Under the pieces are notes generated by a model. The model saw only the letters and a list, made by a program, of their open reading frames with translations, was not told where the DNA came from and did no database searches. The position numbers were made by a program, and so were the translations under genes. From the NCBI GenBank assembly GCA_965215885.1, contig CBDCEW010000084.1:1-64000 (forward strand): a stretch of 64,000 nt of DNA, given 5' to 3'. The stretch's first letter is position 1, and the number at the start of each line of letters is the position of its first letter. This document shows, one piece after another, positions 3,211 to 57,056 of this stretch. The DNA comes from Candidatus Moanibacter sp. (GTDB lineage Bacteria; Verrucomicrobiota; Verrucomicrobiia; Opitutales; UBA2987).

Positions 3211-3216
3211 CTTGGC

Positions 3217-4575: not shown

Positions 4576-4578
4576 ACA

Positions 4579-11295: not shown

Positions 11296-11337
11296 TACGG
11301 CATCTGGCAGTTCGTTATATCTCCCTCTTCGTCAGTC

Positions 11338-12033: not shown

Positions 12034-12038
12034 AGCTC

Positions 12039-13956
12039 GACCCCATTCGAAAAGCCTTTCGAGCGGACGGTTTCAGGTTTTCCGCCACAGGCGGACCAGC
12101 CTATGGCTGGCAGGCGTCGGGTTTCAGGCTGCCGACGCTGCCGATGAGCAGGTATTGAGCGGCCATCGGCGTGGCTTGCTGCACAATACGCATATTTGCC
12201 GCTGTTTGGAGGCATACTCATCCCGTGGTGCTTTTTTCTCCGAGCTGCAAAGCGGTCAGATTCAGGCCGCCTGTTCCAGTTCCTCCCGTCGTCGTTTCTT
12301 CATCAGTATGATGCGGCAGAAGTTGTAGGCCAGAACCTTCTCGAGCAGTTCATCGCCTACCGCATCGATGCCGCGGCGGCCGAGTTCGCCAAAGGCAAAT
12401 CCATCTTTAATCGTGAACATCAGCGACTCCACTGCGGAGCGATTGCGGCGTGCCTCGCGATACGCCTCGCTCTCCCGGTCCTCGGGGGTGGTCAACTTCT
12501 TGCCCTTCGCCCCACTGATACTGATCTGCTTTACCCCCATGCCCAGCACCTCCTTGCGCCCCTTCGCCGAAGCATATCCGTCATCGGTGCTGATCAGTTC
12601 AGCAATGACACCGGTGCGCTTGATCGAATCGCCGATGGCCGGCGCCAGCTCAATGGAGTCTGCCGCATTGCCTTGCGGTACGATCAAGCTGGTGACAAAA
12701 CCGTTTTCGCTGCGAACCAGTTGTGGCTTGTACCCGATGACTGGATTGCGGCTGCCCTTCTTGATGTAGACCGCCGATCCGTCCGACAGGCTCAGGACCT
12801 TCTGCGTGGACGGTAGCTTCTTTTCGTGAAACACCCGATCATGAGCATACTCAACAACCCGCTTGGCGTCGGCAATATCGCGCCTGATCTGGCTCAATAC
12901 CCGCTTCAGAAGCTCCCGGCGAGTGGGAGGCAGTGAATCCATCGACAGGCCCTCTTCAAGATGGCTCAGTTCCCCCGTTAGTGAGTCGGCCGCCTTGTGG
13001 CCCCGCTTGAGCAACCGCCGGTAGTGTTTCTTCAGCTTGCCCTTCGACTTCGGTTTGCCCGCGGCCAGACAAATCTGAAACTCCAGCTTGTCCATCTCCT
13101 GCAGCCAACGCCCAACCCATCCCTTGCGAAAATCCTCCAGCCCGAATATATGCAACTTCTGACCCAAACGATTGGCCCGCATCAAAAGACCGCTCAGAAT
13201 CCTCCCATCGGTGGGCCAGCAGCTGTTTGCTTTCACCGAGGTGCTGTCGATCGTCAGCTTCCCGAAATCGTCCCATTGCTCCTGGAGGATAAACCCAATC
13301 TGTTTATCAAAGATCAGCTCGCGGGTCCTATGGCTGACCAGGTTCACGTTCTCCAGAATCGTCGTCACCGCCGGCATCCTCAGTCCCCGCCTCTGAAGAA
13401 ATCCGTACAAGCTCATCGACTCGCGCAGAAACCGCCGTGCCGGTTTCGTGGTCAACGAACCGAGAAACCCACGAATCATCACGAACACGTATACCGCATA
13501 AGCCGGCATCCGCGGCCGGCCTACCGCAAGATTCAATTCAGCAGCCAGAATATTCTCCTCCTCGATGTCCAGCTCCGGCAGCTCCGCTGTGCGCCCTTCA
13601 AAGAACCTTCGATCTTCCAATCGAAGTTTCTTCTTCTCACGCGCATGGGCGTCCAGATCCTTCTCGATCGCCTCGATGATTTGCGCCGCGAACCCGGCCA
13701 ATTCTTCAACTTCATCCAGAAAATCACGAAAATCCGTGTCTGGAACCGGCAGAATGAGGTTGCTAAGGGGCGTCTTGTCGCTTTTGTTCTCCTCTGTCGC
13801 ACATGTTGGCATGTTTAACTCATTTCTTAATCTTAAGTTGTTAAACACTAGTATGTTACGACACTTTTTATCAAGCCGAAAAACTGATTTTTCTCAAGTT
13901 TTTCTTGCGCCTTTTGCGCCTCTTTGCGGCCAATCAGTAGCTTTTCGGATAAGGTC
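12039..13956 (-). mobile_element. ISNCY/IS5-like DDE insertion sequence, copy 2 (1918 bp)
   Basis: Same IRs as copy 1; TSD TAGCTC at 12033..12038 and 13957..13962. Confidence 0.95.
12262..13812 (-). CDS. DDE transposase (ISNCY/IS5-like)
   Basis: Near-identical to 6084..7634. Confidence 0.9.
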   Translation of the reverse strand: MPTCATEENKSDKTPLSNLILPVPDTDFRDFLDEVEELAGFAAQIIEAIEKDLDAHAREKKKLRLEDRRFFEGRTAELPELDIEEENILAAELNLAVGRPRMPAYAVYVFVMIRGFLGSLTTKPARRFLRESMSLYGFLQRRGLRMPAVTTILENVNLVSHRTRELIFDKQIGFILQEQWDDFGKLTIDSTSVKANSCWPTDGRILSGLLMRANRLGQKLHIFGLEDFRKGWVGRWLQEMDKLEFQICLAAGKPKSKGKLKKHYRRLLKRGHKAADSLTGELSHLEEGLSMDSLPPTRRELLKRVLSQIRRDIADAKRVVEYAHDRVFHEKKLPSTQKVLSLSDGSAVYIKKGSRNPVIGYKPQLVRSENGFVTSLIVPQGNAADSIELAPAIGDSIKRTGVIAELISTDDGYASAKGRKEVLGMGVKQISISGAKGKKLTTPEDRESEAYREARRNRSAVESLMFTIKDGFAFGELGRRGIDAVGDELLEKVLAYNFCRIILMKKRRREELEQAA

Positions 13957-14299
13957 TAGCTCTATCTTTAAACGATTCATTTAGCAATTTTGCATCCTCA
14001 AAAAAAATGCACTGAAATCGAGCAACTTCCGAAAATGGTACGATAAAGATCAAGCCAATTATACCGGCCCCTAGTCCTGGTGGCATATCCGCTCGGGCAT
14101 GCTGCCAGCATTGCATACTTGCGGGCAAACCTCAAGAGATGTGAGCTTTGGCGCAATCTCGAGCGAAGACAGGCTGTGTTTCTCCCCGCATTCGCTACCA
14201 ATTCGTCTCCATCTTCTTAACTCCGTTTGCGCCAAAGCCGTGAAATCTTCAGGCTAGTGAAGAACCCTGCCGAATTCCCGCTTGACTTTACCGTAGGGT

Positions 14300-14917
14300 G
14301 TGAAATCGACTGGTCGCATGCATCTGGTTTGCCTGGACCTGGAAGGCGTCCTCCTTCCCGAAATCTGGATCGCGGTCGCGGAAAAGACCGGTATTGCTGA
14401 ACTCAGGCGAACCACCCGCGATGAGCCCGATTATGACAGGTTGATGCGTTTCCGGCTGGATATTCTCTCTCGTCACAACATTGGAATCGACCTGATACAA
14501 GAGGCCATCGGCTCACTGGAGCCACTCCCGGGCGCGCTGGATTTTACCCGTTGGTTAATATCGGAAACTCGACTCGTTGTTCTCTCCGATACCTTTGCGG
14601 AATTTGCCGCTCCCCTCATGAAGCAGCTGGGTTATCCAACCCTCTTCTGCCACAATCTCGTGATCGATGATTGCGGCCGAATTGTTGACTACCGGCTGCG
14701 GCAACAGGATCAGAAACGAAATGCAGTCATCGCTTTTCAAAAGTTGAACTTCGAGGTCATCGCCGCGGGAGATTCTTACAACGACCTGAGCATGCTCCAA
14801 GCCGCTGACCATAGTATTCTCTTTTGTCCTCCGGACAGGATGCAGACGGAATATCCCGACTTTCCCGTCACAACCGACCACTCCGAGCTTCGCGCACGAA
14901 TCGAAGAGCTCATCTGA
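14300..14917 (+). CDS. thrH: Bifunctional phosphoserine phosphatase/homoserine phosphotransferase (HAD)
   Basis: CLDLEGVLLPEIW, TTRDEPDYD, LSDTF, AAGDSYND. Confidence 0.93.
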   Translation: MKSTGRMHLVCLDLEGVLLPEIWIAVAEKTGIAELRRTTRDEPDYDRLMRFRLDILSRHNIGIDLIQEAIGSLEPLPGALDFTRWLISETRLVVLSDTFAEFAAPLMKQLGYPTLFCHNLVIDDCGRIVDYRLRQQDQKRNAVIAFQKLNFEVIAAGDSYNDLSMLQAADHSILFCPPDRMQTEYPDFPVTTDHSELRARIEELI

Positions 14918-15111
14918 TACCCCGCCTCCTCTCGGGATACGGAACACTCTTGTTTGAGCGTTCCATAAATCTGATATTGAGATCTCTATTTACCGTTGCC
15001 GGCTTGTTTTATCCAAGCCGATAAAGGTATCGCGCGGCGGAACGGCGGCGGGCTGAAGGGAGTCAGCTTTTTATGAGTGTCGTTCAACCCGTTCGCTTAA
15101 CTTCCTCTTTC

Positions 15112-16500
15112 TTATTGAGAGGATTTTTTGCCATAAAATCCTATTCCGATAAGAAATGCTAAGGACAATAGTGAAATGATGATGCCAATAAGAAAAACCG
15201 GCCTGTCAACCTTGAATACCACATCATGTTCACCTGCAGGTAAAAGAAGCCCTCTGAATAGGTGGTTGACTGGATACACCCGGGTAGGTTTGCCATCCAG
15301 TTGACCTTTCCAAAGAGGATAGTATGCGTCAGTCAGAACTAACACTCCGGGGTTTTTCAACTTTGCCTTGATTTGACCCTCTGGGTTGAATATACTGTAA
15401 TCACCGGGAGTTCGTGTTTTGCAGGTTTTACAGGTAATTTCTGTTCGACCACAGCCATTTTAAAGGAATCAGGTATCTGAATACTTTTTCAAAGCGGCCT
15501 ATATAAAAAATGGCACCTGCAATCAGGCAAAAACCCGCCAATTGAGAGTTTTATCGAAGAGCTCGGCCTTTATATATGGGGCACTGAATAGGGACGCCTG
15601 GTCATAGGTTCGAGTAAGAATTGCAGGATCATTAGGAGGTAAAATCTGATAAACTCGCTCGCCCCAGGCACTGGATTGATTGACCAGGTTCAACTAAAAG
15701 TGAGAATTTCCGCCTTCAGGTGGATAGCCTAGTCCGAGAAGAAACAGTAAGAAAGTCAAAATACATCCCGTAGCAATCAAGCATTTCTTGAGTTCAGCCT
15801 TCGACCAATTTTGATTTAATGCAAATGCCGTCACCAAAGCAGAACCAAGCATGTAGAAGATAAGAAATCGCTGTAAGGAAAGATCTCCCAAAGATACCAA
15901 CGGCCCCAGTAGGATCCGGCTGTGCCATCACCAAAAAAGAACGGGCAGATTGCTGTTATGAGATTTTCTGGCGGCAACGAATAGCTACAGGCGAATTCAT
16001 AATCAACTTCTCTGGATCGGTGGGAATATCTCGTGAAATAGGCTGTTGGAATGGTTTGAATGGCGGCAATTACTAGGCTGAAGATGCTGGCCAATCCCAG
16101 TTTTCCCAGATTAACGACACTTTCATGTAGGTTTGTTTTCCGGATCAGAATCCAGGCAACCCAATAAAAGAAAAGAATCAGCCCAGTAAAATATGTGTAC
16201 TGCGGATAACCAGCCAGTAGCTGTATTCCCAATAGCCCACCCGTATAAATGGCATCCTTCCAGGAATTGTTTCGCAGAGATTTGTCCCAGAAAAGCAAAA
16301 TAACCGGAATCCAGGGACAGGTATTCACAAAACCTAAGTGGCCAGCATACAGGCGAATTGTAAACACCCCTGACAATGAGAAAACTGCAGCCCCGGTAAA
16401 TGGCCCAAACCTGTGCTACAGCAGGTGGCATCAGATCGGCAAGATAAGCATTAAAGTGGTAAATTTTAGAAAAACAGATTCGCCAAATCAGAAGAACCTT
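15112..16500 (-). pseudogene. Degraded YfhO-family (GT-C-like) membrane protein, several frameshifted fragments
   Basis: Fragments show QLLAGYPQY, SLPPENLIT..P.FFG and a C-terminal LVLTDAYYP.W....DG.......N..FRG....AGEH motif; lower GC than the flanks. Confidence 0.75.
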
Positions 16501-43678: not shown

Positions 43679-43915
43679 GGAGTGTTGGTTCTGACTGACG
43701 CATACTATCCTCTTTGGAAAGGTCAACTGGATGGCAAACCTACCCGGGTGTATCCAGTCAACCACCTATTCAGAGGGCTTCTTTTACCTGCAGGTGAACA
43801 TGATGTGGTATTCAAGGTTGACAGGCCGGTTTTTCTTATTGGCATCATCATTTCACTATTGTCCTTAGCATTTCTTATCGGAATAGGATTTTATGGCAAA
43901 AAATCCTCTCAATAA
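43679..43915 (+). pseudogene. YfhO C-terminal fragment, truncated by the ISAs1 end
   Basis: Same protein fragment as 15112..15348. Confidence 0.8.
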
Positions 43916-44109
43916 GAAAGCGGAAGTTAAGCGAACGGGTTGAACGACACTCATAAAAAGCTGACTCCCTTCAGCCCGCCGCCGTTCCGCCGCGCGATAC
44001 CTTTATCGGCTTGGATAAAACAAGCCGGCAACGGTAAATAGAGATCTCAATATCAGATTTATGGAACGCTCAAACAAGAGTGTTCCGTATCCCGAGAGGA
44101 GGCGGGGTA

Positions 44110-44727
44110 TCAGATGAGCTCTTCGATTCGTGCGCGAAGCTCGGAGTGGTCGGTTGTGACGGGAAAGTCGGGATATTCCGTCTGCATCCTGTCCGGAGGA
44201 CAAAAGAGAATACTATGGTCAGCGGCTTGGAGCATGCTCAGGTCGTTGTAAGAATCTCCCGCGGCGATGACCTCGAAGTTCAACTTTTGAAAAGCGATGA
44301 CTGCATTTCGTTTCTGATCCTGTTGCCGCAGCCGGTAGTCAACAATTCGGCCGCAATCATCGATCACGAGATTGTGGCAGAAGAGGGTTGGATAACCCAG
44401 CTGCTTCATGAGGGGAGCGGCAAATTCCGCAAAGGTATCGGAGAGAACAACGAGTCGAGTTTCCGATATTAACCAACGGGTAAAATCCAGCGCGCCCGGG
44501 AGTGGCTCCAGTGAGCCGATGACCTCTTGTATCAGGTCGATTCCAATGTTGTGACGAGAGAGAATATCCAGCCGGAAACGCATCAACCTGTCATAATCGG
44601 GCTCATCGCGGGTGGTTCGCCTGAGTTCAGCAATACCGGTCTTTTCCGCGACCGCGATCCAGATTTCGGGAAGGAGGACGCCTTCCAGGTCCAGGCAAAC
44701 CAGATGCATGCGACCAGTCGATTTCAC
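44110..44727 (-). CDS. thrH: Phosphoserine phosphatase/homoserine phosphotransferase, copy 2
   Basis: One aa difference from 14300..14917. Confidence 0.93.
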   Translation of the reverse strand: MKSTGRMHLVCLDLEGVLLPEIWIAVAEKTGIAELRRTTRDEPDYDRLMRFRLDILSRHNIGIDLIQEVIGSLEPLPGALDFTRWLISETRLVVLSDTFAEFAAPLMKQLGYPTLFCHNLVIDDCGRIVDYRLRQQDQKRNAVIAFQKLNFEVIAAGDSYNDLSMLQAADHSILFCPPDRMQTEYPDFPVTTDHSELRARIEELI

Positions 44728-45047
44728 ACCCTACGGTAAAGTCAAGCGGGAATTCGGCAGGGTTCTTCACTAGCCTGAAGATTTCACGGCTTTGGCGCAA
44801 ACGGAGTTAAGAAGATGGAGACGAATTGGTAGCGAATGCGGGGAGAAACACAGCCTGTCTTCGCTCGAGATTGCGCCAAAGCTCACATCTCTTGAGGTTT
44901 GCCCGCAAGTATGCAATGCTGGCAGCATGCCCGAGCGGATATGCCACCAGGACTAGGGGCCGGTATAATTGGCTTGATCTTTATCGTACCATTTTCGGAA
45001 GTTGCTCGATTTCAGTGCATTTTTTTTGAGGATGCAAAATTGAATAA

Positions 45048-45716
45048 ATGAATCGTCTTAAAAGCGCAGATTCCGTTATTTCTCTGCCCGAGTTTTGTAT
45101 CAACCTGGTGATAGCTTTAGTAATCAGCACTCTGGTTGGACAGCTCTACATACGATATGGACGCTCGCTATCAAACCGTCGTAGATTTGCCAAGTCATTC
45201 GTCCTGTTGTGTGTGGTTACGACGCTGATAATATCGGTAGTGAGTTCATCCCTGGCTCTCTCTCTGGGGCTTGTGGGCGCTCTTTCGATTGTCCGGTTCC
45301 GCGCGGCCATAAAAGACCCTGAAGAATTAGTCTACCTTTTTCTGATCATCGCGTTTGGCGTGGGACTGGGCGGCAACCGGCCGGTCCTTACTTTAGTCGG
45401 CTTTCTCGTCGCCGCTTTCGTGATTCGATTACAGGCGTTCGATGAAAAGGGTTCCGAGGCGACGCATAAGGTTTTGAGCATTTGCTCACCAAAATTACCG
45501 GCGAGTGATTTGAAACAGATACCTCAGCTACTACGACCTCATTGCACAGGCGTTTCTCTAAAACGGTTCGATGAAAACGAAGATGGTATGGAAGCCGTAT
45601 TCCTGATAGGCGTAGAAAGCTGCGATGCGCTTATGAGTTGCAAAGAGGCGTTGGAGAGTGCGTTCACAGAAATTAGAGTGTCCTTTTTTGATTCGGCGTT
45701 TCTTACAGAGGATTAG
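45048..45716 (+). CDS. DUF4956 family protein, copy 2 (different N-terminus because of a ~50-bp deletion)
   Basis: GLVGALSIVRFR motif. Confidence 0.88.
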   Translation: MNRLKSADSVISLPEFCINLVIALVISTLVGQLYIRYGRSLSNRRRFAKSFVLLCVVTTLIISVVSSSLALSLGLVGALSIVRFRAAIKDPEELVYLFLIIAFGVGLGGNRPVLTLVGFLVAAFVIRLQAFDEKGSEATHKVLSICSPKLPASDLKQIPQLLRPHCTGVSLKRFDENEDGMEAVFLIGVESCDALMSCKEALESAFTEIRVSFFDSAFLTED

Positions 45717-45758
45717 GACTGACGAAGAGGGAGATATAACGAACTGCCAGATGCCGTA

Positions 45759-48700
45759 ATGATGCGTCTCAATCCTGGATCAGCGCGGGTTTTGAAGTAC
45801 TCTTTGGTGGTGCTGTTGTTACCGGTTATTTTGATTACCCTGGCCCTCTTCTTCGACTATTTCGAATGGGTAGGTATTAAGGACTATCTGTCCCGGGATT
45901 TTGCCATCGAATCCGAGGATTTGGTTTTTTTTGGAATTGCGTTGCTGGTTTTCTCTTCCCCGTTCGTTGTCAGGCGGTGGGTTCGTTCGTTGAATCTATT
46001 TCTCTCAATGCGGTCTTCCAGACCCGAAGCTCTTTTGATTTCCAGGGATCAGGACAGGAAAGAGGGGAAAGGAACTTCACCAGCTTTACACAATGCACCG
46101 AATGCTATTTTCGCTTTGTTGCTTCTTTCGTTTGCCGTAGCTGCCTTCGCACCGGATTGGGCGAAGAGCGGGGTCTACCATACCATGGCTTCTGCACTCA
46201 ATCCGTTTGCGGAAGAATTCGTTACGCCGGCAGAACGTTCCATCAACGTAGTTCCCAGTCCGGATAGGCAAGGTGACAGTCTTGAGAAGACAAAGCTTCC
46301 TGTGATCGAGCTAACAATTCCCGAGTTGAGTATGCAGACATTGCTCAAGGCCATTCCGGAAATCGATCCGAACATCAACAAAGTCACAAACTTTTCCAGG
46401 TTTGCCGGTGTTGACGGCCCACAGTGGCCTTGGGTCCCCGCAGCGCTGACTTACGGGAGAAGAACCTATGACGTGGAAGTTCGTTTTCGTGGATGGAACA
46501 TGGATCACTTTATGGTTCAGAAGAAATCCTGGCGAGTAAAGTTTCCTAAAGACAACCTGTTTTACGGTCTCCGTGAGATTAATATCATAAATCAGCGGGA
46601 CCATACCGCTGTAATTGATGTTTTGCGGAGTGAATTATTGCGGGATTCCGGGTTACTGGTGCCAACGCAGTTCATGGTGCATCTCCGCATCAACGGCAGG
46701 TTTGCGGGTATTCAGACGTATCTTGAGCAGCCTGGAGAGCGCTTTTTTATCAAGCATAACCGAGCGGTGGGAGACTTTTACGGAGAGAAGAAACCGATTG
46801 ATTCGAAGAAGGGATTCTTAAATCCCGATAGTTGGCAGAAGTATTCGGCATGGAAGGATAGGCACTCATTTGAGAATTTGATGGAATTATACCGGGCAAT
46901 CTTCAGTAAGGGCAGACCCGGGTATAAGGAGAAGATCGAGGAGATTCTCGACATTGACCAGTATCTCACGTTTTGCGCGCATGCAGCCATTATGGCGCGC
47001 CTAAATCATTCCGGGCATAATATACGATGGATCTTTGATCCAGTTTCAGGGAAGTTTCAGATCGTTCCATGGTACCAGGGGCCGACCACGTATAGAAGTG
47101 GCAATGATTTCAGGCTGATAAAGAGGCTGGGTTGGAAAGTTTACCCACTTGGTCTTGCCATAAACGATGATATGGATGGCCTGTTTCATTTAGAGGATTT
47201 CCGCGAGAGGTATTATTCGAGGACCTGGGAACTCCTAACCTCCAGCCATGAACGAAGCCGAATCCTGGCGAAAATAGATGAACTTTATGAACTGGTTAAA
47301 GAGGATGTTTATGCCGACTCTCGTATACACTATAGTCCATACGTTCAGATGTATATCAGTAATGAGCAGTGGGAAGAAAGCATTTCGCGCCTGAAGGAGT
47401 TGGTGGTATTGCGAGATCAATATCTGAAGTCGGAGTTTAACCGCTGCGATTTAACCGTATCGGCAAAGCCATCCGGCCCAAGGGAATTCGTGGCCGAATC
47501 TCTGTTGGGTGCGTTGACTTTATTAGGTAGAATCGAACTAGCGAGCAGCGAACACATAGCCCCGTATGTTGAAACTCTGAGGATCGGAATTAGAGGATTA
47601 CAGTTAGAATCCATTGAGGACCTCATAGTTCTCGATTCGAAGAGTGGTCAGCAATTTAAGGCCATTAGCGAATCAAATGGGAATGGCGAAGAGATGCTGG
47701 TTTCGTTCAAAATTGCTCGGTCCTTCCCATCGCGCGTCTCCGGGATCCCCTACCAGGTGCCGCTTGAGAATGGGATCTTTGTGTCACCGTACCCAATGGA
47801 AACTGGGAAGCTTTATACCCCTCAGAAGACGATTCATACTCTCTCATTGGCGCTCAGAGGGAAAAGGGTCCTGCCGAGTACAGTTGCATGGGAGGTACTA
47901 TCAGTGGCAGCGAGAAATTCTGTCACCGGTGATCCGTTGCCCTCAGGAGTGTCTCCCGAGCAGGCACATTCCGGATCGAGAGTAGAGAGCGGTATGACTC
48001 GAACGATGGAATTGGTTTCACATCCTCGCACGCCGGAGGGCACTTTATCGGAACGGAAACCTGACGGCATTGGGAAGCTGCAGCCAGGCATTGCGCAGTT
48101 TCAAAAGACTGTGGTGTGGAGTCGCGGTAAAAGAGTGTTAGAGGAGGATTATGTGGTTGAAAAAGGGACGAAATTGATCGTCGAGGCGGGAGCGGTGATC
48201 GCGATCAGGGAGGGGCGTTCGTTATTGGTGAAAGGCTTGATCGAAGCGAAAGGTACCCCGCAAGAACCCATCCTGTTTACGTCCGAAAACCCAGGTGAAT
48301 ATTGGGGAGTTATTGCCGTGGCAACTCAAAGGCAAGGAATGAATGTATTTCAAAATTGTATCTTCGAGTACGGGAGTAATGCGACTTTGGGACGGGTAGA
48401 TTATACCGGGGTTGTCTCCCTTTATTTCTCCGAGGGGACGGTTGAGGAGTGTATCTTTCGCGACAACCGCGCGGACGATGCGATCAACTCGAAGTATGCG
48501 TCACCGACGATATCAAATTGCCGCTTCGTTCGCAATCTCGACGCTGTCGACATAGATTTTGGTGGAGGTATTGTTAAGAACTGCACCTTTCGCGACAGTC
48601 GCGACGATGCCATCGATTTGTCCTCATCTTGGGCGATTATAAGAGATAACCGGATCTATGGTGGCGGCGATAAAGGTATTTCGATCGGTGAGAAATCCTT

Positions 48701-49127
48701 TCCCAAAGTCTACAACAATTTGATTCTTGACTGTAATATTGGAATTGCCATCAAAGATCTTTCTGAACCCGTTATGATTAATAATACGGTGACTCGAAAT
48801 AAGTGGGGTTTGGCTCTTTATAGAAAGAAATTTGAATTTGGTCCGAGCAAAGGAGAGCTTATTAACTCTATCGTTTTTGGCAATCGAACCGACGTCATCA
48901 TTGAAAAGGGATCTCACATTTGGGCGTCTAACAGTCACATTGGACAGCGAGTGGCCGGTCCAGATAATTCGAGCGATCCGCCACTTTTTTTAGATCCCGG
49001 CAGGCGTGATTTTCGTCTGTCGGATGACTCCCCCTGCCTCGGAAAAGGAAACGGGTATTTGGTGAGTTACTATGGGGTAAAGGGGTCGCAGCGATTGTGG
49101 AATGTGGGATGTGAATACGATGATTAG
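45759..49127 (+). CDS. CotH kinase / beta-helix protein, copy 2
   Basis: Four aa differences from 7927..11295. Confidence 0.85.
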   Translation: MMRLNPGSARVLKYSLVVLLLPVILITLALFFDYFEWVGIKDYLSRDFAIESEDLVFFGIALLVFSSPFVVRRWVRSLNLFLSMRSSRPEALLISRDQDRKEGKGTSPALHNAPNAIFALLLLSFAVAAFAPDWAKSGVYHTMASALNPFAEEFVTPAERSINVVPSPDRQGDSLEKTKLPVIELTIPELSMQTLLKAIPEIDPNINKVTNFSRFAGVDGPQWPWVPAALTYGRRTYDVEVRFRGWNMDHFMVQKKSWRVKFPKDNLFYGLREINIINQRDHTAVIDVLRSELLRDSGLLVPTQFMVHLRINGRFAGIQTYLEQPGERFFIKHNRAVGDFYGEKKPIDSKKGFLNPDSWQKYSAWKDRHSFENLMELYRAIFSKGRPGYKEKIEEILDIDQYLTFCAHAAIMARLNHSGHNIRWIFDPVSGKFQIVPWYQGPTTYRSGNDFRLIKRLGWKVYPLGLAINDDMDGLFHLEDFRERYYSRTWELLTSSHERSRILAKIDELYELVKEDVYADSRIHYSPYVQMYISNEQWEESISRLKELVVLRDQYLKSEFNRCDLTVSAKPSGPREFVAESLLGALTLLGRIELASSEHIAPYVETLRIGIRGLQLESIEDLIVLDSKSGQQFKAISESNGNGEEMLVSFKIARSFPSRVSGIPYQVPLENGIFVSPYPMETGKLYTPQKTIHTLSLALRGKRVLPSTVAWEVLSVAARNSVTGDPLPSGVSPEQAHSGSRVESGMTRTMELVSHPRTPEGTLSERKPDGIGKLQPGIAQFQKTVVWSRGKRVLEEDYVVEKGTKLIVEAGAVIAIREGRSLLVKGLIEAKGTPQEPILFTSENPGEYWGVIAVATQRQGMNVFQNCIFEYGSNATLGRVDYTGVVSLYFSEGTVEECIFRDNRADDAINSKYASPTISNCRFVRNLDAVDIDFGGGIVKNCTFRDSRDDAIDLSSSWAIIRDNRIYGGGDKGISIGEKSFPKVYNNLILDCNIGIAIKDLSEPVMINNTVTRNKWGLALYRKKFEFGPSKGELINSIVFGNRTDVIIEKGSHIWASNSHIGQRVAGPDNSSDPPLFLDPGRRDFRLSDDSPCLGKGNGYLVSYYGVKGSQRLWNVGCEYDD

Positions 49128-49818
49128 GTCGCCTGAGGAAGGGTTGAGCTTTCGAGAGGAGCGGAAGTTTGTCATACCCCGTGGCGACTGTCGGGAGATT
49201 GAGGGTATGATCAGAATCTCGCCCGCGATGTTTTCTGAGAACTTTCCACCCCGATGGGTAAATAGCATCTACCTAGATACTTATGATTTTCTGAATCATA
49301 CCGAACACCTTGCAGGAGTCTGCGATCGAGCCAAACATCGAGTTCGGTGGTACGGTAGTCTTCGAGGAAAAATCACGAGTCCGGTTCTTGAGGAAAAAAT
49401 GCGCTTCAGCATTTTAGGAGCGAAGAGAAGGTACCGATTGCCGGAGTTTAACTTTGATGGGCGTATATCTTCTTCTATCCTCCACTCGAAACTTAGGGAA
49501 GGGGAGGTTGATCCTCGTATTTTGGAAGTTTGCCTTAAGAAGATCTTAACCATTGTTACTCGCTACCGGCGAAAGTATTTTGTATCGCGTGATGGAAGAT
49601 ATCGAGTAACGATCGACTGGGGGCTCGAATATTACGGAGTTCAAGCAGGTGGGTGCGGTTTTCGAAGAGGTAGAAAAGAATCCACCGTTATTGTTGAGCT
49701 TAAATATGATCCGGAATTCAGTGACGACGTGCATCGAGTAGTTTCTAAGATGCCGTTTCGAATTGTCAGGAACTCAAAATATATGAGAGGCGTCAGCTCG
49801 ATTTATGGCATCGAATGA
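49120..49818 (+). CDS. VTC (polyphosphate polymerase) domain protein, intact
   Basis: REERKF, VNSIYLD, R.KHRVRWYG, RVTID, VELKY, SKY..G. Confidence 0.88.
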   Translation: MIRSPEEGLSFREERKFVIPRGDCREIEGMIRISPAMFSENFPPRWVNSIYLDTYDFLNHTEHLAGVCDRAKHRVRWYGSLRGKITSPVLEEKMRFSILGAKRRYRLPEFNFDGRISSSILHSKLREGEVDPRILEVCLKKILTIVTRYRRKYFVSRDGRYRVTIDWGLEYYGVQAGGCGFRRGRKESTVIVELKYDPEFSDDVHRVVSKMPFRIVRNSKYMRGVSSIYGIE

Positions 49819-49877
49819 ATTGGCGTTATGTTCCTAAACAATGCAATTCACAGCCACGTCTTCACCGGTGGAGAAAA

Positions 49878-50564
49878 TCAGGCTGAAGGTGGAGGTTGCC
49901 TTCCCTGGTTGCCTTCGATGATTTGAGAAATTTGCTCCACGACCTCTACAAGGGGTATTTTCGAATTGTTGATTCGTATTGCTCCCTGGGGGCAGTGGAG
50001 AGGAGCCAGATTTCGCGTGGAGTCGGTTTTGTCGCGCTCTTCGATGGGATCCCGAAGGCCTTCTTTTGAACGACGGCGGGCTCTGGTCTCTTGATCGGCT
50101 TCCAGGTAGAATTTGAAGTCCGCATCGGGAAAGACGACCGATCCGATGTCCCGGCCTTCCATAACAATGCCGTGGAATTCGTGATTCCGGGCGAATGAGG
50201 CGAGGCTGCGCTGATAATCAAGCAAGAACTGCCTTACCTGGGGAACGGCCGAGAATTGAGAAACCTCCCGGTTTACCTGGGGGCTCCTCAACTCTTGCGA
50301 GGTGGGCGAAAATCCGGATAAGCGAATACGAGCGCTTCGACTCCGGACGACAGTATCGATCTGTATTTTGTTTAAATCTGATCCCAACTTACCAGAGTTT
50401 TCAGAACTCAGACCTCTATTAAGGCAGAAGTAGGTGACGGCTCGATAGTGGGAACCGGTATCGACGTAGAGCAATTTGAAGCGTTCGGCGATGAGGCGCG
50501 CAGTGGAAGACTTACCGGATGCGGCCCCTCCATCAATAGCGATGATTTTGAATTCTTCCGGCAT
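49878..50564 (-). CDS. cmk: Cytidylate kinase, copy 2
   Basis: As 4579..5268. Confidence 0.95.
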   Translation of the reverse strand: MPEEFKIIAIDGGAASGKSSTARLIAERFKLLYVDTGSHYRAVTYFCLNRGLSSENSGKLGSDLNKIQIDTVVRSRSARIRLSGFSPTSQELRSPQVNREVSQFSAVPQVRQFLLDYQRSLASFARNHEFHGIVMEGRDIGSVVFPDADFKFYLEADQETRARRRSKEGLRDPIEERDKTDSTRNLAPLHCPQGAIRINNSKIPLVEVVEQISQIIEGNQGRQPPPSA

Positions 50565-50567
50565 TGT

Positions 50568-51926
50568 TCACGATTCGGTGTGTAGTGAGCCCAGGATGTC
50601 AAAGAATCGTGGGAAAGTCTTTGCTACGCAGTCCGGGTTCTTAATGGATAGCCAAGGATTATCCTGGTCGAGGATATTGGCACAGCCGAGGATTGCGAAA
50701 CTCATGGCTATCCGATGATCGTTGTATGTCTCGATAGTGACTCCCCGGGCTGCTCTCTCCCGAAGAGCGGAAAGGTCGGGAGTGATCAGAAGATCCTCCA
50801 CTCCCTCTTCGATTCCCTGTCCGAGCCGCCGTAATTCGTGAGCGACCGATGCGAGGCGATCAGACTCTTGCTTACGCGTGTGGCCAATTCCTCGAATATG
50901 GACCCTGCTTTCGAATAGCGGGGCAACTGCTGCCAGGGTAAGGAAAGTGTCAGAGATGGGATTGAAGTCCAAATCGAGCAGGTCTCGACCTGAGGGCAAT
51001 CTCCTGCCCCCTTCAAATCGAAAAGAAATCTCGGAAGAATCGCTCTCCACGCAAAGTCTTGTGTTTTCCCGAAGCAAACTCAGAAATTGAGAATCTCCCT
51101 GGAGAGGAACTTCACTTAAGGCGCGTATGCTGATGGTCCCCCCCGCCACGAGGGGAAGAATGGCAAAGTAGCTGGCGGCTGTCGCATCCGGCTCAATTTC
51201 ATATACTGCGCCCTCCAAATTGTAATTGCAGGGGGCCTCAATCTCAAAACCGCCATTTTCCCCGGTTACATATCTCTGGAGTCCGAATTGCTCCATCATC
51301 CGATGAGTCATTTCAACAAAGGGCTTTGATACCGTTTCGCCTCGAAGTGAAATCTGTAAGAGGTCTTTTGCGTGGGGCGCCGCCATCAGCAAAGCGGAGA
51401 GAAACTGACTGCTGGCACTTGCGTTCACTTCAATCTTACCCCCGGAGAGACCGTGAGTGTGGAGGGTGAACGGAAAGTGCCCTGTTTGGCCTTCGTATTG
51501 GATCTTTGCGCCGAGAGCTATGAGGGCGTCGAGGAGCCCTTTCATGGGACGATTTCGCATAATGTTTTCGCCATCGAGAAAGTAAGAGCCACCTTCCCGG
51601 AGGCAGAGAAAGGCGGTCAGAAACCTCGCAGCAGTACCCGCGTTTCCGATAAAGATACGCGCGTCGGGGTTCGGAATTTTACCACCTTGACCTCTAATCC
51701 GCACTGAGTTTTCGGTGTGTTGGGCTATGACTTCATAGCCCAATGCGATGAGAGCCCGCACCATAATCTCAGTATCTTCGCTAAAGAGGGCGTTGCGCAG
51801 GGTAACTTCATGATCGCAGAGTGCCGCCATTATAAGCGCCCGATTTGTGATACTCTTCGAACCGGGTAATCCTACCCTTCCCGCAACGGGTCGAGTGAAG
51901 GGAAGTATGGGAAGAGGGTCTTTCAT
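50568..51926 (-). CDS. aroA: EPSP synthase, copy 2
   Basis: Same protein as 3217..4575. Confidence 0.97.
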   Translation of the reverse strand: MKDPLPILPFTRPVAGRVGLPGSKSITNRALIMAALCDHEVTLRNALFSEDTEIMVRALIALGYEVIAQHTENSVRIRGQGGKIPNPDARIFIGNAGTAARFLTAFLCLREGGSYFLDGENIMRNRPMKGLLDALIALGAKIQYEGQTGHFPFTLHTHGLSGGKIEVNASASSQFLSALLMAAPHAKDLLQISLRGETVSKPFVEMTHRMMEQFGLQRYVTGENGGFEIEAPCNYNLEGAVYEIEPDATAASYFAILPLVAGGTISIRALSEVPLQGDSQFLSLLRENTRLCVESDSSEISFRFEGGRRLPSGRDLLDLDFNPISDTFLTLAAVAPLFESRVHIRGIGHTRKQESDRLASVAHELRRLGQGIEEGVEDLLITPDLSALRERAARGVTIETYNDHRIAMSFAILGCANILDQDNPWLSIKNPDCVAKTFPRFFDILGSLHTES

Positions 51927-51932
51927 GCCAAG

Positions 51933-52032
51933 CTAGGAATCTGTCGGACCTAGAATTCTTAACACCCCCATATCGACGAATTCATGGTGACAGATCGACA
52001 TTCCGACGCAGATGAGACCGACAGATTCCTAG
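51933..52032. repeat. ~100-bp MITE-like element (duplicate of 3111..3210)
   Basis: CTAGGAATCTGTCGG TIRs. Confidence 0.85.
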
Positions 52033-52895
52033 CTGCCCTCCAATTTTAGCCGAAGGCGGTCGCGGAAAGCTTTGCCGTGTTCGAGGACATTGAGAATCTC
52101 AAAGACCTGACCATTTGTGATGGCGGTCTTCATGGCTTGGAGTTCATCCTCAAACCCACCGATGGCACGGACGATTTCTTCGCGATTCTGTTCGATTATG
52201 CATTTCCAGAGACTGGGGCTTGCGGCCGCAACACGCGTCGAGTCGCGCAGTCCGTCTCCCGCAAAATTGCGCCAGTTGGAGTCTTTGGAGCCAAGGTAGG
52301 TACAGAGAACGCTGGCCAAAACATGGGGTAGATGGCTGATATTGGCTACGATTTCGTCGTGCTGCTCCGGCGTCACCGTTACGACTTCCATATCGAGCGC
52401 TTTCCAGAACAGCAGTAGCGATTCAACCGCCTTTTCATCGGTGTCAACTAGAGGTGTTACGAAACAGGCCTTCTTACGATAGAGCTCAGCATCCGCATAC
52501 TGCATACCGCTCTTCTCGGAGCCGGCCATGGGATGCGACCCGACGAATGCCGCATTGCCTGGAATCAGAACATGGCAATGGCGTGTAATCAGGCTCTTAG
52601 TGCTACCGACATCGGTCACGATTGCCCCCGGTTTGACACAACCGGCGATGCGGGCCACTATCCCTTGAACGGCTTCAACCGGTGTGCATACAACAACGAT
52701 ATCGGATCCTCGAACTGCCTCTTCAAGGGTCTCGGTTACAGAATCGCACCAGGGTTGTGATGCGCATTTGAGGCGTGTTTCGGGGCGGCGCGCCCATAGA
52801 ATGGTACGCTGAGAAATTTGGCGTGCTTTAACAGCCTGTGCCAGAGAGGCGCCTAGAAGGCCCGGTGCGATGATAGTGATCTGCTCAAACATCAA
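52029..52895 (-). CDS. tyrA: Prephenate/arogenate dehydrogenase, copy 2
   Basis: Same protein as 2248..3114. Confidence 0.93.
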   Translation of the reverse strand: MMFEQITIIAPGLLGASLAQAVKARQISQRTILWARRPETRLKCASQPWCDSVTETLEEAVRGSDIVVVCTPVEAVQGIVARIAGCVKPGAIVTDVGSTKSLITRHCHVLIPGNAAFVGSHPMAGSEKSGMQYADAELYRKKACFVTPLVDTDEKAVESLLLFWKALDMEVVTVTPEQHDEIVANISHLPHVLASVLCTYLGSKDSNWRNFAGDGLRDSTRVAAASPSLWKCIIEQNREEIVRAIGGFEDELQAMKTAITNGQVFEILNVLEHGKAFRDRLRLKLEGS

Positions 52896-54705
52896 TTTTG
52901 CTTTGATATTTCAACCGGTAAAACAGGAATGCGATAATGTAAATCAGCAGAGCGAGTTGTGCCAGGAACTGAAGCCCGAAGAGCATCGATAGATACTCGA
53001 GGCAGCCGCCCAAAACGGACCCCAGAAGGTTTGATCCGAGTGCTGAGGTGGGGTTAGCCGAACGGGAAAGGAGGATCGGGACGATAATACCGGCAAAGAA
53101 AATGGGAATAGCGATGAGAAGTCCACCGAGAATGCTTCGAGGGAGCATCTCAAAATGATTGAGTTCGCTGACCGGGAAATAGCATACCAGAACAACGGCG
53201 AAGAAGAGGCCTAAGAACCAGTATGTGGGATCTCTCAGACTGAAATGCATGACAACCAGATTGGCCAGCAGAACCATCGTCAGGATGGCAGCAAATACGG
53301 CGGAGTTTACAATCCATGTGGATCCGAAAAGAAGGGATAAGCTGGTGATGCCACGCGTCTCCAAAAGGAGAAATGAAGTGCCCATAAGAAAGAGGGTAGA
53401 GTCAAATTCCCGGACTACGTTTTTCTTCCCAAACGCGAATACGACCAATCCCGTTCCCAGGAGCAGGATGAAGAGCAGTACCAGGAGGTAGCCCCAAGGG
53501 AAGACTCCGGGACGTATGTAAAGAAAGGGCCAATCATCACTCGTGGTTCGAACCTGGGGTATCTCGCTCCCCGCCTCTATCGTCTGAAAGGTGTTCAGTC
53601 GGGCGTAATTGAGCTTGGCACTCTCTTTAGGGACGATGAAGGTTACACTGAAATGTTCTCTCTCGTGAAAAAGTGGTAGTGGCCGTATGCCGGTCGCCTT
53701 CGCGATTGTCGTATAAAGCCGCAAGAAAAACCACTCACCGGCATAAACGCTTATAGTAATGCTGAGATGCCCCCTATCAGAAACCAGCTCCCAGGCGGAT
53801 CGAATGCTGTCCTCGGTGTAGACGTAATTGTCAAGTCGCAACGAGGACATGGATGAAAACATGGCATGCGAGTCGAGGAAACCGAAACTGACGACGTCAA
53901 AGGGTTCACCCTGGTATTGTTCAAAGAAAGGTCTGGCATCGTTAACCACCGGAATTACCTCCGAATTTTGGTAAGGTTGTTCAGGGTGTAGCGATTGTCC
54001 CAATGCAATGATCTCTCCGTCGATATCTACAGAATAGATCATGGCGTAATCGTTTCGAATTGCCGCCTGAACATCGTTTCCGGTGCCGGCTCCCACAATT
54101 AATGCCCTTCTGCGCGCATCATTTATAAAAAAGGGTAAGTCGTAGACGCGTCTTAATCCGAATGCCAAGAGGTCTTTGCTTTGAGAGAGCTCCTCCCTGG
54201 ATAACGGGAGCTCGGAGAAATCATGCATGTATTGATGGAAATCCCGGTTTACCCTGATCGTGATTGCGACAGGATTGTCATGCTTAACATCGATGCGATT
54301 GTAAGGTGAGTATATTGCCCCCTGAATGGAAAAAGCGCTCAGAATTAGAATGCCGAGAAAGGCTGCAATGCTGTACCACTTTCGCGACAGCCAGCAGAAC
54401 GGTAATCCCCCAATCATGAACCAGATTGGAGGGTTCGCGGAGAACGAGGTTGCGATCGTGAATGCGATTATGCCCAGGAGCGAGCCGAGCAGATCTGCCG
54501 AGTAGGCACGAAGAGTGGGAATTCTACCAAAGAGATACCCAACAGGAGTTCCAGCAAATATAAAAACACTGACAATGAAGCAGAAGAGGCAGAGAAAAAT
54601 TGCGATGTTGAGACTGAAGGTAGAGAGAGACCAAGTGTTCAGCTCCCCATAAGAAAACTGAGGTAGTCCGTCAAGGGATTTTTTGAGTTTTTTCTCATGT
54701 TGTGT

Positions 54706-56016
54706 TTACAAGGCGTTGGCATTTGCTTGCTGAAGTCTTTTCCACACCGGTGAACCGGTGCGTTGGAGCGATTGGAGATACTTTTGCTCATCGTAGCGTT
54801 CGCTATTTTGCCAACAGCGAAACAGAATGCGGGTCCACTTGAGAGCGAGGGCACGAAGAATGGTTTGGCGGGGTTTGCCCTGTTCTTTTTTGATCTGGTA
54901 AAAGGCCTTTGCCCAGGCACAGTTTCGGATCGAATGTTCGGCAAATTCAACGAAACTTTGCCGCACGAAGGTAGGAGCCGCCCACCGCCAGTTGACCATT
55001 CGTTTCGGTTGTCCGGTTCTTTTGTCCTGCCCGCTGTTGATCGTGACCGGAGCGGATCCATTCCACTGGGTCATGTTCTGGGCCGTTTCGAAGTGCGAAC
55101 GATCGGTCCCGAACGCGCACAGCAACCGGGGACTCATGACCTCGCCGGCTCCGGGAATGCCACTGAACACGGCTGCATCGGGATGGCTTCTGAATAGCTC
55201 CCTGATACGCTTCTCATACGCTTTGATCTGCGGGCACAGGGTCAAAAGCTGTCCGGCCAACGTCTGTGCTTTTCTGCTGGATGCTTCAATGATGGCTGCA
55301 TCTTCGGTCAAGGCTCGTGCGTTACCGATCAATTCGAGACGCTCCTGGATTTTGGCGTCACTGCGACAGTTGTGCTTATAGAAGAACTTTCGCAAGACAC
55401 CCTCCGATGCTCTGTGCAGCTTCTTGAGGGTCGGCCAACGCAATATAAAGTGCAGGCACAGGCCACTGCCTAGATCATCGAACAATTTCAAGACCAAAGG
55501 GTTATATTGCTTCAGACAACTGCCCAACTGCTGTTCGAGGCTGGTAGCCTGATCGACGAATCCACGGCGGTCCTCGCACAACAGGTTCAGCTCCCGTGTT
55601 TGGGCCGTGTCAGGTATGAAACATTTGGTAAAAAGCTCGGGATGTTTGAGGAAAAACTCCGCGTGTATTTGCGCATCGACCGGGTCGCTCTTGGCCCCTG
55701 ATGGATACAGCGCCCGGCGATAATCCTTCGCCCTGGCCGCATGCACTGGATAGATATCGACAAACTCCAAGCCCATCAGAAAGTTGATCAACCCTCCTCG
55801 CTTCTGGTCCACCACCATGGCCATGCGCTTGCCCACGCTGGCATACTTTTCTCTCATCTCTACGGCAAATTCGTGCAAGCTGACCGCATCCTGCGCCACC
55901 TGTCGATGGGTCCCTTTTCCCGTTTCGCTCTCTATGATCCACAGATCGTTTTTCTGATCCGCCCAATCAATTCCTATCACCACACTATATCGATTTGTTT
56001 TTTCCCTTTTCTGCAT
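54706..56016 (-). CDS. IS110-family recombinase (DEDD RuvC-like domain plus Tnp domain)
   Basis: GIDWAD, KSDPVDA, GIPGAG, GSAP.T.NSG, ALALKW.RILFRCW; RBS AAAGGA. Confidence 0.95.
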   Translation of the reverse strand: MQKREKTNRYSVVIGIDWADQKNDLWIIESETGKGTHRQVAQDAVSLHEFAVEMREKYASVGKRMAMVVDQKRGGLINFLMGLEFVDIYPVHAARAKDYRRALYPSGAKSDPVDAQIHAEFFLKHPELFTKCFIPDTAQTRELNLLCEDRRGFVDQATSLEQQLGSCLKQYNPLVLKLFDDLGSGLCLHFILRWPTLKKLHRASEGVLRKFFYKHNCRSDAKIQERLELIGNARALTEDAAIIEASSRKAQTLAGQLLTLCPQIKAYEKRIRELFRSHPDAAVFSGIPGAGEVMSPRLLCAFGTDRSHFETAQNMTQWNGSAPVTINSGQDKRTGQPKRMVNWRWAAPTFVRQSFVEFAEHSIRNCAWAKAFYQIKKEQGKPRQTILRALALKWTRILFRCWQNSERYDEQKYLQSLQRTGSPVWKRLQQANANAL

Positions 56017-56044
56017 CCCTTTGTTCCTTTAGTTTGTCTTTTTG

Positions 56045-56343
56045 CTTTTTTCAAAGGCACTGGATGTCCAGGCGAAGTCCTTATAGTTGGATCCTGTTAT
56101 GAGGATGTAAACTGAGTGTTCGTTTTCGGTCATCCAGGCAGGCCGTCCACTCGAAATTCTGTCGGAAGTCCTCTTCGGACTGATTCCTAAGTTCGTAGTG
56201 GACGGCTGCCTTTGAATATTTTCACCCTTAGCCAAACAAACTCTTTGACCCATCGCCAACCACTGATCGGCCAAGTTATTCACAAAGGGGCCTCGCCGAG
56301 TTTTTCCTGCGGCTCCACTCGGTCCCTTGGATGAATAACCTGG
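56045..56343 (-). ncRNA. Putative IS110 bridge RNA (5' hairpin, target-binding loop, donor-binding loop)
   Basis: Nested stems with two internal loops whose strands match the MITE TIR and the IS junction (see findings). Confidence 0.85.
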
Positions 56344-56347
56344 AGCT

Positions 56348-56353
56348 ACTATA
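56348..56353 (-). promoter_or_regulatory. -10 box TATAGT of a circle-junction promoter (the -35 TTGACG is at 54669..54674)
   Basis: Joining the right end to the left end gives TTGACG-N17-TATAGT. Confidence 0.85.
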
Positions 56354-56813
56354 AGTAAACTGAGGTGTCTGGAAACTTGAGGTGCACCAGTCCAAATTTC
56401 TGGGAAAATGCAAAAGGGATGCCGACCAAGAATAGAGAAGGGAGAGTAAGATGCACGAGCCCGCTAAATCGTTTTCCCAACGCGACTCCAATCCCCATTC
56501 CCAGAAAAGCGCCGATTAATACAATGTTGTTGAAGTAGGCGAATATCCTGATCTGGGTTGTGCTCCAGCGGATTATTGCCAGCTCAAGGGCTAATATTCC
56601 GAAGGTCGCCAATCCAATTTTGAAAGCGACTGGTCCGCCTTTCTCAGCCCACCCCGTCTCCTTTAGCAGGTTCAAGCGCATTTTGAGAGCGAGAGTTCTC
56701 TTCTCGTAGAAAAACCTTTACCCTTCATCAGCTGTAGGAGTAAACTGGGAGTGAATCTTCTCTAGGTGCCTGTCGGCGAAGTGAGAAAGTCTCTTAGGAT
56801 CGTTTGTAGATTC

Positions 56814-56933
56814 ATGAAAAATCAGCCTGACGGTAAAGAGAGCGCGAGAGCACGCCGACATTTAATGATCTTATACGGATTTATGGCCCTGTTTATTGGG
56901 CTCCCATTCGTCCTCTTTTTCATCTTCCTCTAA
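56814..56933 (+). CDS. Small (39 aa) single-TM protein
   Basis: MKNQPDGKESARARRHLMILYGFMALFIGLPFVLFFIFL; below the ORF-track length cutoff. Confidence 0.5.
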   Translation: MKNQPDGKESARARRHLMILYGFMALFIGLPFVLFFIFL

Positions 56934-57056
56934 CCGGGAGTGTTACTTATTAATAAAAAAACCCCGTGGTTAAATATTAAGCCTGGCGTTCTCGGATTCA
57001 TTATTTTTTGAGATTAGTTTAATGATCAGGTTCAGTCAGTTTCCGGAAGTGTAGTC

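Follow-up and report, generated by a model that had tools for sequence, protein, structure and literature searches.

The left end of an IS110-group element from Candidatus Moanibacter sp. very probably encodes a bridge RNA with a target loop and a donor loop, and the copy analysed here is probably an off-target insertion. This copy lies in the window, by which we mean the whole 64,000-nt stretch of DNA that was analysed (contig CBDCEW010000084.1, positions 1 to 64,000; features in Table 1). Three sets of observations carry this reading: the anatomy of the RNA, the covariation of its helices across distant homologues, and the matches between its guide strands and the DNA that flanks the insertions. 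An IS110 element whose left end encodes a bispecific bridge RNA had been proposed from the letters of the window alone (hereafter, the original prediction), and the Pfam domains of the recombinase, the fold of the left end and the guide matches bear this out. The element belongs to the bridge-RNA systems published in 2024 and is not a new kind.

The element and its left-end RNA

On the minus strand, the element consists of a left end of 337 nt, an open reading frame for a recombinase of 436 aa and a right end of 52 nt. The source genome (6.36 Mb in 105 contigs, 90% complete) holds 10 full copies, along with a partial copy at the contig start and two small fragments. The limits of the element are those of the stretch common to the 9 other full copies (query positions 46–1749), whose flanks diverge exactly there; within it, each of the 9 differs from the window copy by 1–3 bases. 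Comparison of the flanks places CT at both junctions in 10/10 full copies. The termini thus show a long left end, a short right end and CT at the boundaries, with neither terminal inverted repeats nor a target duplication. The IS1111-group layout, with the RNA placed in a long right end and with long subterminal inverted repeats, was not found in this element, which has its RNA in the left end. No joined right-end/left-end form, whether circle or tandem, was found in the assembly.

The recombinase matches the Pfam families DEDD_Tnp_IS110 (PF01548, 1.2e-17) and Transposase_20 (PF02371, 2.3e-09), and therefore has the RuvC-like DEDD domain and the Tnp domain with a conserved serine that mark bridge recombinases of the IS110 group. 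In an alignment of 40 homologues, D17, D111, D114 and S328 are invariant, and position 70 is D in 7/40 (the focal recombinase included) and E in 33/40. Among solved structures, only the transposases of ISCro4 (9t56) and IS621 (8wt6) are matched, and weakly so (E ~1e-4, 24 bits, residues 251–413); ISCro4 is the best of these (E 8.8e-05), with its SG motif aligned to S328. The protein collection contains 1588 homologues of the recombinase, the closest at 79, 79, 70 and 59% identity. Relatives were not found in genome contigs with the single recombinase as the query; a profile of 40 homologues led to 160 loci, at 35–46% protein identity, from Verrucomicrobiota, Acidobacteriota, Cyanobacteria and other phyla.

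Table 1. Features of the element, its left-end RNA and the interrupted gene, in window coordinates.
Feature	Position	Strand	Basis or remark
IS110-family element	54652..56355	minus	1704 nt if the CT core is counted at both boundaries, 1702 nt if it is counted once
Recombinase gene, 436 aa	54706..56016	minus	Pfam and homologue alignment
5′ hairpin of the left end, arms CCAGGTTATTCA / TGAATAACTTGG	56271..56343	minus	fold
Bridge RNA core: closing helix around two arms	56050..56216	minus	fold, model R1, covariation
Closing stem TTCAAAGGCA / TGCCTTTGAA	56207..56216 with 56050..56059	minus	fold
Arm 1, target-binding	56142..56206	minus	fold
Arm 2, donor-binding	56060..56137	minus	fold
Left target guide CTTAGGAATC	56182..56191	minus	sense of the target left half plus core C
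Right target guide TCCGACAGA	56158..56166	minus	reverse complement of T-CT-GTCGGA
Left donor guide CTCAGTTTAC	56107..56116	minus	match to the right end
Right donor guide ACTATAAG	56080..56087	minus	reverse complement of CTTATAGT
TTGACG, −35-like hexamer in the right end	54669..54674	minus	sequence; followed by 15 nt and the CT core
TATAGT, −10-like hexamer at the start of the left end	56348..56353	minus	sequence
Left flank of the window copy, CTCAGTTTA	56356..56364	minus	native gene sequence mimicking the left donor half
Right flank of the window copy, TATGGG	54646..54651	minus	4/6 to TATAGT; 2/6 to the right target guide (GTCGGA)
Interrupted gene, N-terminal part	56349..56681	minus	frame runs into the element and stops; aligns with P0121 residues 1–109
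Interrupted gene, C-terminal part	52885..54651	minus	98% identical to P0121

The original prediction had drawn a 5′ hairpin followed by a closing stem around two arms with internal loops, and each of these stems and loop strands is present on the minus strand where it had been placed. An unconstrained fold of 56017..56354 returns the same helices at −113.4 kcal/mol, with a z-score of −4.62 and none of 100 shuffles equally stable. This single-sequence fold pairs a few loop bases, which the family consensus leaves unpaired. At position 56323 the window copy has an A where the 9 other copies have a pair-closing G, and the energy of the 5′ hairpin is −46.4 kcal/mol with A versus −53.6 kcal/mol with G. 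A search of 54000..57000 against Rfam 15, with E up to 10, found no relevant family, only a chance match on the opposite strand and outside the element (E 5.6). Among four sequencing runs, all consisting of contigs, two metatranscriptome libraries from one study have contigs that cover the left end, over 56067..56300 in X17 and over 56061..56355 in X18, with depths of 21.5 and 13.7 against 5.9 and 2.6–4.3, respectively, over the 5′ part of the gene; we do not count these depths as expression, because depths cannot rank gene parts and DNA may be present.

The RNA recurs well beyond this genome. A covariance model of the focal 167-nt core alone, with its loops left unpaired (R1), matches a two-arm RNA 5′ of the recombinase gene at 114 of the 160 distant loci. 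Full-length matches on the coding strand just 5′ of the gene occur in 61/80 loci (E ≤ 6e-4) and in 53/80 loci (E ≤ 1.5e-4), and many of the loci without a match end short upstream. For covariation, we used an alignment of 100 hits from 99 loci (one locus appears twice; 97 rows are distinct). In these 100 hits, 94.0% of alignment cells are paired versus 66.8% after shuffling, both sides change in compensatory fashion in 44 of 47 base pairs, and the covariation score is 0.621 versus at most 0.108 with slid partners, figures that are biased toward the model structure to which the alignment was fitted, a bias that the slid controls and an RNAalifold consensus lessen and do not remove.

Five of the six helices appear in the consensus that RNAalifold derives on its own from the same alignment; the one it lacks is the target arm's apical hairpin. 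The loop strands had been expected to stay open in a consensus fold, and the guide strands are indeed unpaired there except for one invariant A–U. A covarying closing helix of 9 bp encloses both arms. The left-end RNA is thus a structured one with a variable first loop and a conserved second loop: the first differs from element to element, and the second is nearly constant among homologues (...CTCAG... and ...CTATAAGG...). The same pattern is described for IS621 orthologues in passages of Durrant et al. 2024 (PMC11208160). A separate model of the 5′ hairpin (R2) gave matches at about 12 of 99 homologue loci, all of them weak (33.6 bits at best), and family-wide conservation of the hairpin was not seen with it.

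Guide loops, insertion sites and core

Arm 1 had been read as spelling CTTAGGAA-TC-TGTCGGA. This reading agrees with the flanks of 9 of the 10 genomic copies and fails for the flanks of the window copy itself. The 9 canonical copies read ...(c/t)(t/c/a)AGGAAT-CT|TATAGT... on the left and ...CTCAGTTTT-CT|GTCGG(A/T) on the right, with AGGAATC before TTATAGT and CTGTCGG after the right end in 9/9. The arm-1 strands CTTAGGAATC and TCCGACAGA (the reverse complement of TCTGTCGGA) spell exactly this canonical site, the target predicted from arm 1 for these copies being xxxAGGAAT-CT-GTCGGA. Because nine independent insertions carry the arm-1 site, the blind prediction of the target is borne out. The target loop is therefore complementary to both halves of the site and overlaps the core, with the exception of the window copy, whose flanks match the target guides at only 4/9 positions on the left and 2/6 on the right.

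Empty sites with the 13-mer AGGAATCTGTCGG number 256 in the genome, versus about 0.2 expected by our estimate from genome size, and this target 13-mer often lies within palindromic units, for example CTAGGAATCTGTCGGAC...GTCCGACAGATTCCTAG. The element therefore targets a REP-like repeat. Tobes and Pareja are said to have reported in 2006 that IS110 elements target REP-like repeats, and ISPpu9 of Pseudomonas putida reportedly inserts into repeated palindromic intergenic sequences. Such targeting by another IS110 element is also described in a preprint abstract, in which ISPpu10 inserts into repeated palindromic intergenic sequences (one of the abstracts 10.1101/2025.10.25.684509 and 10.64898/2026.03.19.712850). 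The likeness of our element to ISPpu10 and ISPpu9 lies in the multi-copy repeat target, here often palindromic.

Homologues show the same correspondence between guide and flank. We located their ends by motifs (TTATAG on the left, the first CTCAG after the stop codon on the right) and excluded the focal row, one duplicate hit and identical guide pairs, which reduced 98 rows to 86; these 86 unique guide pairs gave 51 scorable flank comparisons on the left and 57 on the right. The left target guide agrees with the flank of its own element at 6.92 of 10 positions and with those of other elements at 4.03; for the right target guide the corresponding values are 4.70 of 6 and 1.69. None of 2,000 permutations reaches the left or the right value, so that loops and insertion sites do covary, as the original prediction needed them to.

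Arm 2 had been read as the element's own junction, and its strands do correspond to CTCAGTTTTC of the right end and CTTATAGT of the left end. The left donor guide CTCAGTTTAC agrees with CTCAGTTTTC at 9/10 positions; at position 9, where the guide has A and the element's own donor T, the two do not pair. Among homologues, positions 6–8 of this guide match at a rate of about 0.8 and positions 9–10 at about 0.4. The right donor guide corresponds to the first bases of the left end, C-TTATAGT, and CTATAAG is near-invariant across homologues. Beyond TTATAG, no covariation of the right donor guide was found in the homologues, in which it matches its own end at 1.22 and the ends of others at 1.32. The donor loop thus matches both ends through CTCAGTTT and CTTATAGT, with positions 9–10 and the bases beyond TTATAG carrying no pairing signal in the family.

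One further base of the target loop follows the donor. In 68 of 74 homologues, the base of the target-loop 3′ strand that comes after the core complement can pair with the last left-half base of the donor (59 A:T and 9 T:A); it has no such pairing with the corresponding base of the target itself (the L074 group is an example). The nine T:A cases may go back to a small number of independent events. This base resembles the handshake guides described for IS621 in Hiraizumi et al. 2026, a study of the IS621 bridge recombinase and its RNA (PMC13626964).

When the two ends are joined, TTGACG in the right end stands 17 nt from TATAGT at the start of the left end. TTGACN is found at the equivalent place in 67/80 homologue right ends, and TATAGT in 53/75 homologue left ends, of which TATAG is present by construction, as the ends were located with TTATAG. 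We regard the joined hexamers as a putative promoter by analogy with the IS621 junction promoter, which is described as having its −35 in the right end and its −10 in the left end (PMC13626964).

Two readings other than ours bear on these data. The folded left end might be a mere 5′ untranslated leader, a promoter or regulatory structure of the recombinase gene with no guide role; it does lie directly 5′ of the start codon, nothing resembling a terminator comes after the closing stem and no Rfam 15 model matches it, but its loop strands track their own insertion flanks across dozens of homologues and spell the sites of 9/9 canonical copies, and we hold this reading to be extremely improbable. 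The other concerns the core and the length of the site, which the original prediction had given as a TC-like core within about 17 bp (8+2+7), longer than the 14 bp of IS621. TC and CT are indistinguishable in the focal element, as TCT stands at both of its junctions; moreover, the loop strands, of 10 and 9 nt, end exactly on TC and GA, and one of the nine canonical copies (L008) matches all 17 positions. The homologues decide otherwise. Multi-copy homologues have the left junction ...C|TTATAG, with a target-specific base (often C) before the CT, and the right junction ...(T/A)CT|, in which the base before CT derives from the donor; xCT is present in 67/80 located right ends. What the left and right junctions share is CT, the only dinucleotide common to target and donor, and the predicted core of the whole family is therefore CT, as in IS621 (PMC13626964).

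The predicted length shrinks as well. Among homologues, the left guide matches at rates of 0.35 at position 1, 0.22 at position 2, 0.55 at position 3 and 0.69–0.96 at positions 4–10, and the right half at 0.74–0.96 at positions 1–5 and 0.30 at position 6; the two outermost positions of the left target guide (LTG) and the outermost RT position match flanks at chance level. In the nine occupied sites, AGGAAT-CT-GTCGG is invariant, the following A is kept in 7/9, and the three outer left positions agree with the guide in 2, 2 and 6 of these sites. Empty matches to the full 17-mer number 6, versus the 256 empty 13-mers. With the outer positions at chance and only AGGAAT-CT-GTCGG invariant, the effective recognition site is predicted to be about 13–14 bp, not 17, and a TC core in a 17-bp site longer than that of IS621 is very unlikely. 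Native IS621 has a nine-base LTG, a 4-base RTG and 11 target positions according to passages of Durrant et al. 2024 (PMC11208160), where longer RTGs in other orthologues are also already published; its native site is shorter than the one here, and its 14-nt working window is no shorter. The original prediction had drawn a possible use as a programmable tool from a longer site; the present results do not point to a recognition site longer or better than known ones.

Taken with the IS621 analogy, these features suggest how the element would move. In the circularised element, the right end, with its −35 TTGACG, and the left end, with its −10 TATAGT, would be joined across the CT core, and the junction promoter formed in this way would transcribe the left end. 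The RNA would fold into a 5′ hairpin and then a closing helix holding two arms, each with an internal loop. In the target loop, the 5′ strand would carry the sense of the target left half and the 3′ strand would be complementary to CT and the right half; the donor loop would apply the same scheme to the joined ends, CTCAGTTT-T-CT-TATAGT. Bound to this RNA, the 436-aa DEDD/serine recombinase would cleave and exchange strands at the CT core, and the element would be inserted into xxxAGGAAT-CT-GTCGG(A), the REP-like repeat with hundreds of genomic copies.

A copy inside a coding gene

The window copy interrupts a gene for a membrane methyltransferase or spermidine-synthase-like protein. Its flanks are ...ccagacACCTCAGTTTA-CT|TATAGT... 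and ...CTCAGTTTT-CT|TATGGGgagctg, which give the site ACCTCAGTTTA-CT-TATGGG, a mimic of the donor site and not the usual target. The left flank, CTCAGTTTAC, matches the left donor guide at 10/10 positions, CT is kept, and the right donor half is matched at 4/6. Five other CTCAGTTTAC sites exist in the genome, all of them empty, and CTCAGTTTNCTTAT is unique in the genome apart from the element's own junction in the window copy.

The orthologue P0121 (698 aa, 98% identical) is uninterrupted and reads KFPDTSVYLWGAEHLVSL (also given as KFPDTSVYLWGAEHLVSLSTFSL) across the site, which in the gene itself is ACCTCAGTTTACTTATGGG. Joined through CT, the left and right flanks encode the same residues as P0121 as far as HLVSL, which marks the insertion as precise and the donor-like bases as coding sequence native to the gene. 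We had also considered that these bases were a footprint belonging to the insert, with removal of 16 nt restoring the frame, an idea ruled out by the P0121 reading TSVYLWGAEHLVSL. The halves of the gene are out of frame because of a separate lesion alone, at 54622..54630, where (TC)4T is two bases short of P0121's VSLSTF and shifts the frame.

Further observations concern the surroundings of this copy. The N-terminal open reading frame of the interrupted gene, used as a query, was not found in 30 related genomes. In the run X2, a contig of depth 2 connects 54648 with 56351, as expected of an empty site; this is a hint only, given that the contig's shorter side of 27 letters falls below the 31-letter rule. 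The window copy stands at the outer end of a large inverted duplication, the other arm of which starts the contig and ends in the same junction.

Most likely, the window copy is an off-target insertion in which the circular donor recombined with a genomic mimic of the donor that a donor-binding loop had recognised: ACCTCAGTTTA-CT-TATGGG would have paired with the donor loop instead of the target loop. This route is argued from one insertion and from analogy. Low-frequency IS621 insertions at donor-resembling sites appear in passages of Durrant et al. 2024 (PMC11208160); parts of a preprint by Xie et al. 2026 (10.64898/2026.08.31.748434) class insertions as LD+RD, LD-only and RD-only and propose DBL–DBL recognition; and half-match boundaries in natural expanded IS110 loci are described in parts of another 2026 preprint (10.64898/2026.08.14.744561). 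As donor-like and half-match insertions have already been described, the phenomenon is known, and the window copy would be a natural, fixed chromosomal instance of it.

The donor-like flank could also have arisen without donor-loop pairing, as a coincidence after unguided or relaxed insertion, or through homologous recombination or rearrangement linked to the inverted duplication. We are dealing with a single event, and chance does supply such sequences: about 12 CTCAGTTTAC sites are expected in 6.4 Mb by our estimate, and 5 empty ones exist. Yet a random CT site would match the nine bases before the core at a rate of only about 4e-6 (again our estimate), the CT and 4/6 bases of the right half are kept as well, and CTCAGTTTNCTTAT occurs nowhere else in the genome save at the element's own junction. 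Likewise, the copy ends an inverted duplication that shares its junction, so the region has been rearranged, but the junctions are precise, the flanks with CT translate into the orthologue's protein, and there is no homology beyond about 16 bp to drive homologous recombination. On balance, we consider coincidence or rearrangement rather unlikely and prefer off-target insertion guided by the donor loop.

Comparison with known bridge systems

The IS621 bridge recombinase system is said to have been described by Hiraizumi et al. in 2024, and the ISCro4 (IS622) bridge recombinase was reportedly used in human cells by Perry et al. in 2025. Our element shares with IS621 of E. coli a long left end with an RNA gene, a DEDD/Tnp recombinase, a short right end and CT boundaries, and its RNA has the same order of 5′ hairpin, target loop and donor loop. 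In both, the left guides read like the top strand and the right guides are its complement, with an overlap of each with the core; the first loop varies and the second is conserved; and the targets are REP-like. The −35 in the right end and the −10 in the left end of IS621 have putative counterparts at the same places in our element. In both, too, one base of the target loop would pair with the donor strand only after exchange, in the fashion of a handshake guide.

Several differences set the element apart. The recombinase has 436 aa, whereas the chains in the solved entries have 328 and 341 residues, and the similarity to them is faint (24 bits) and limited to the C-terminal domain; even ISCro4 (9t56), the best solved-structure match, is distant. 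The second acidic residue of the focal copy is D and not E as in IS621, and the right target guide pairs with CT and 5–6 further bases, compared with a 4-base RTG. A closing helix surrounds both arms here, whereas the passages on IS621 in PMC11208160 describe three successive stem-loops. The IS1111 group (seekRNA or right-end bridge RNA) has the same recombinase family and guide logic, but it carries its RNA in the right end, which is long, and has long subterminal inverted repeats, as described in PMC11208160, unlike the 52-nt right end and left-end RNA found here.

We consider it evenly balanced whether the element stands for an uncharacterised, widespread bridge clade (marked by a recombinase of ~430 aa, a closing helix that ties the arms together, a right target guide that is long in its native form and a donor-covarying handshake-like base) with the window copy as a natural, donor-loop-guided insertion into a coding gene. 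For annotation, an anonymous 300-nt fold becomes a readable guide RNA that would explain the positions of all 10 copies. A distant and well-populated clade appears to obey the rules of IS621, with a CT core, overlapping guides, a variable target loop and a conserved donor loop, and the covariance model, together with an alignment of some 100 natural RNAs and the target sites paired with them, could guide the choice of orthologues. The interest of the element lies in this generalisation of the IS621 rules at clade level, in the closing-helix variant and in the natural donor-mimic insertion, which disrupts a gene and bears on the off-target behaviour of bridge editors. If the donor-loop reading is true, the donor-match and half-match off-targeting of IS621 in the laboratory would also reshape genomes in the wild.

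A large inverted duplication in the window

The window contains a large inverted duplication, whose arms span 1..15348 and 43679..55142 and align in three blocks, each at an identity within 99.6–99.8%. Two 1.93-kb elements, 97% alike and each encoding a DDE_Tnp_1 transposase, lie in the left arm and are absent from the right arm. Either a genuine segmental duplication or an assembly artefact could account for this arrangement.

Duplicated blocks and DDE_Tnp_1 elements in the window
Feature	Window coordinates	Reverse-complement match	Encoded product
Duplicated block	1-5862	49268-55142	
Duplicated block	7771-11992	45062-49284	
Duplicated block	13967-15348	43679-45062	
1.93-kb element	5855..7781		530-aa transposase, 6084..7676, minus strand
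1.93-kb element	12033..13959		530-aa transposase, 12262..13854, minus strand

The contig start falls within a second IS110 copy, whose right junction is identical to that of the window copy and whose left donor half carries a single change (A at 481 versus C at 54662). The methyltransferase or spermidine-synthase-like gene split by the window copy has a further lesion: at the (TC)n run at 54622..54630, it is two bases short of what the protein of its 98%-identical uninterrupted orthologue requires, and no difference is listed at this position in the other arm of the duplication.

Fragments and a related element

Two small pieces lie elsewhere in the source genome: 210 nt of the recombinase gene, 97% identical (C99:54428-54638), and a 72-nt stretch that is 77% like the 5′ hairpin region of the IS110 element (C6:7714-7785). 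Each may be a remnant of the present element or of a relative.

A related element, present at four loci of one Verrucomicrobiae genome (L016–L018 and L036), has the predicted target GGCCGTCC-CT-CCGGGA. The target sequence is in turn a repeat that forms a hairpin, and more copies of this repeat adjoin the insertion.

The target repeat across the genome

Genome-wide, AGGAATCTGTCGG occurs at 256 unoccupied sites, for example on contigs C24 and C18 of the source genome, and one-mismatch versions that keep the CT core add 161 further sites. The sequence often lies within a palindromic unit, CTAGGAATCTGTCGGAC-n-GTCCGACAGATTCCTAG being one example. These repeats are a REP-like family that serves as the landing pad for the IS110 element.
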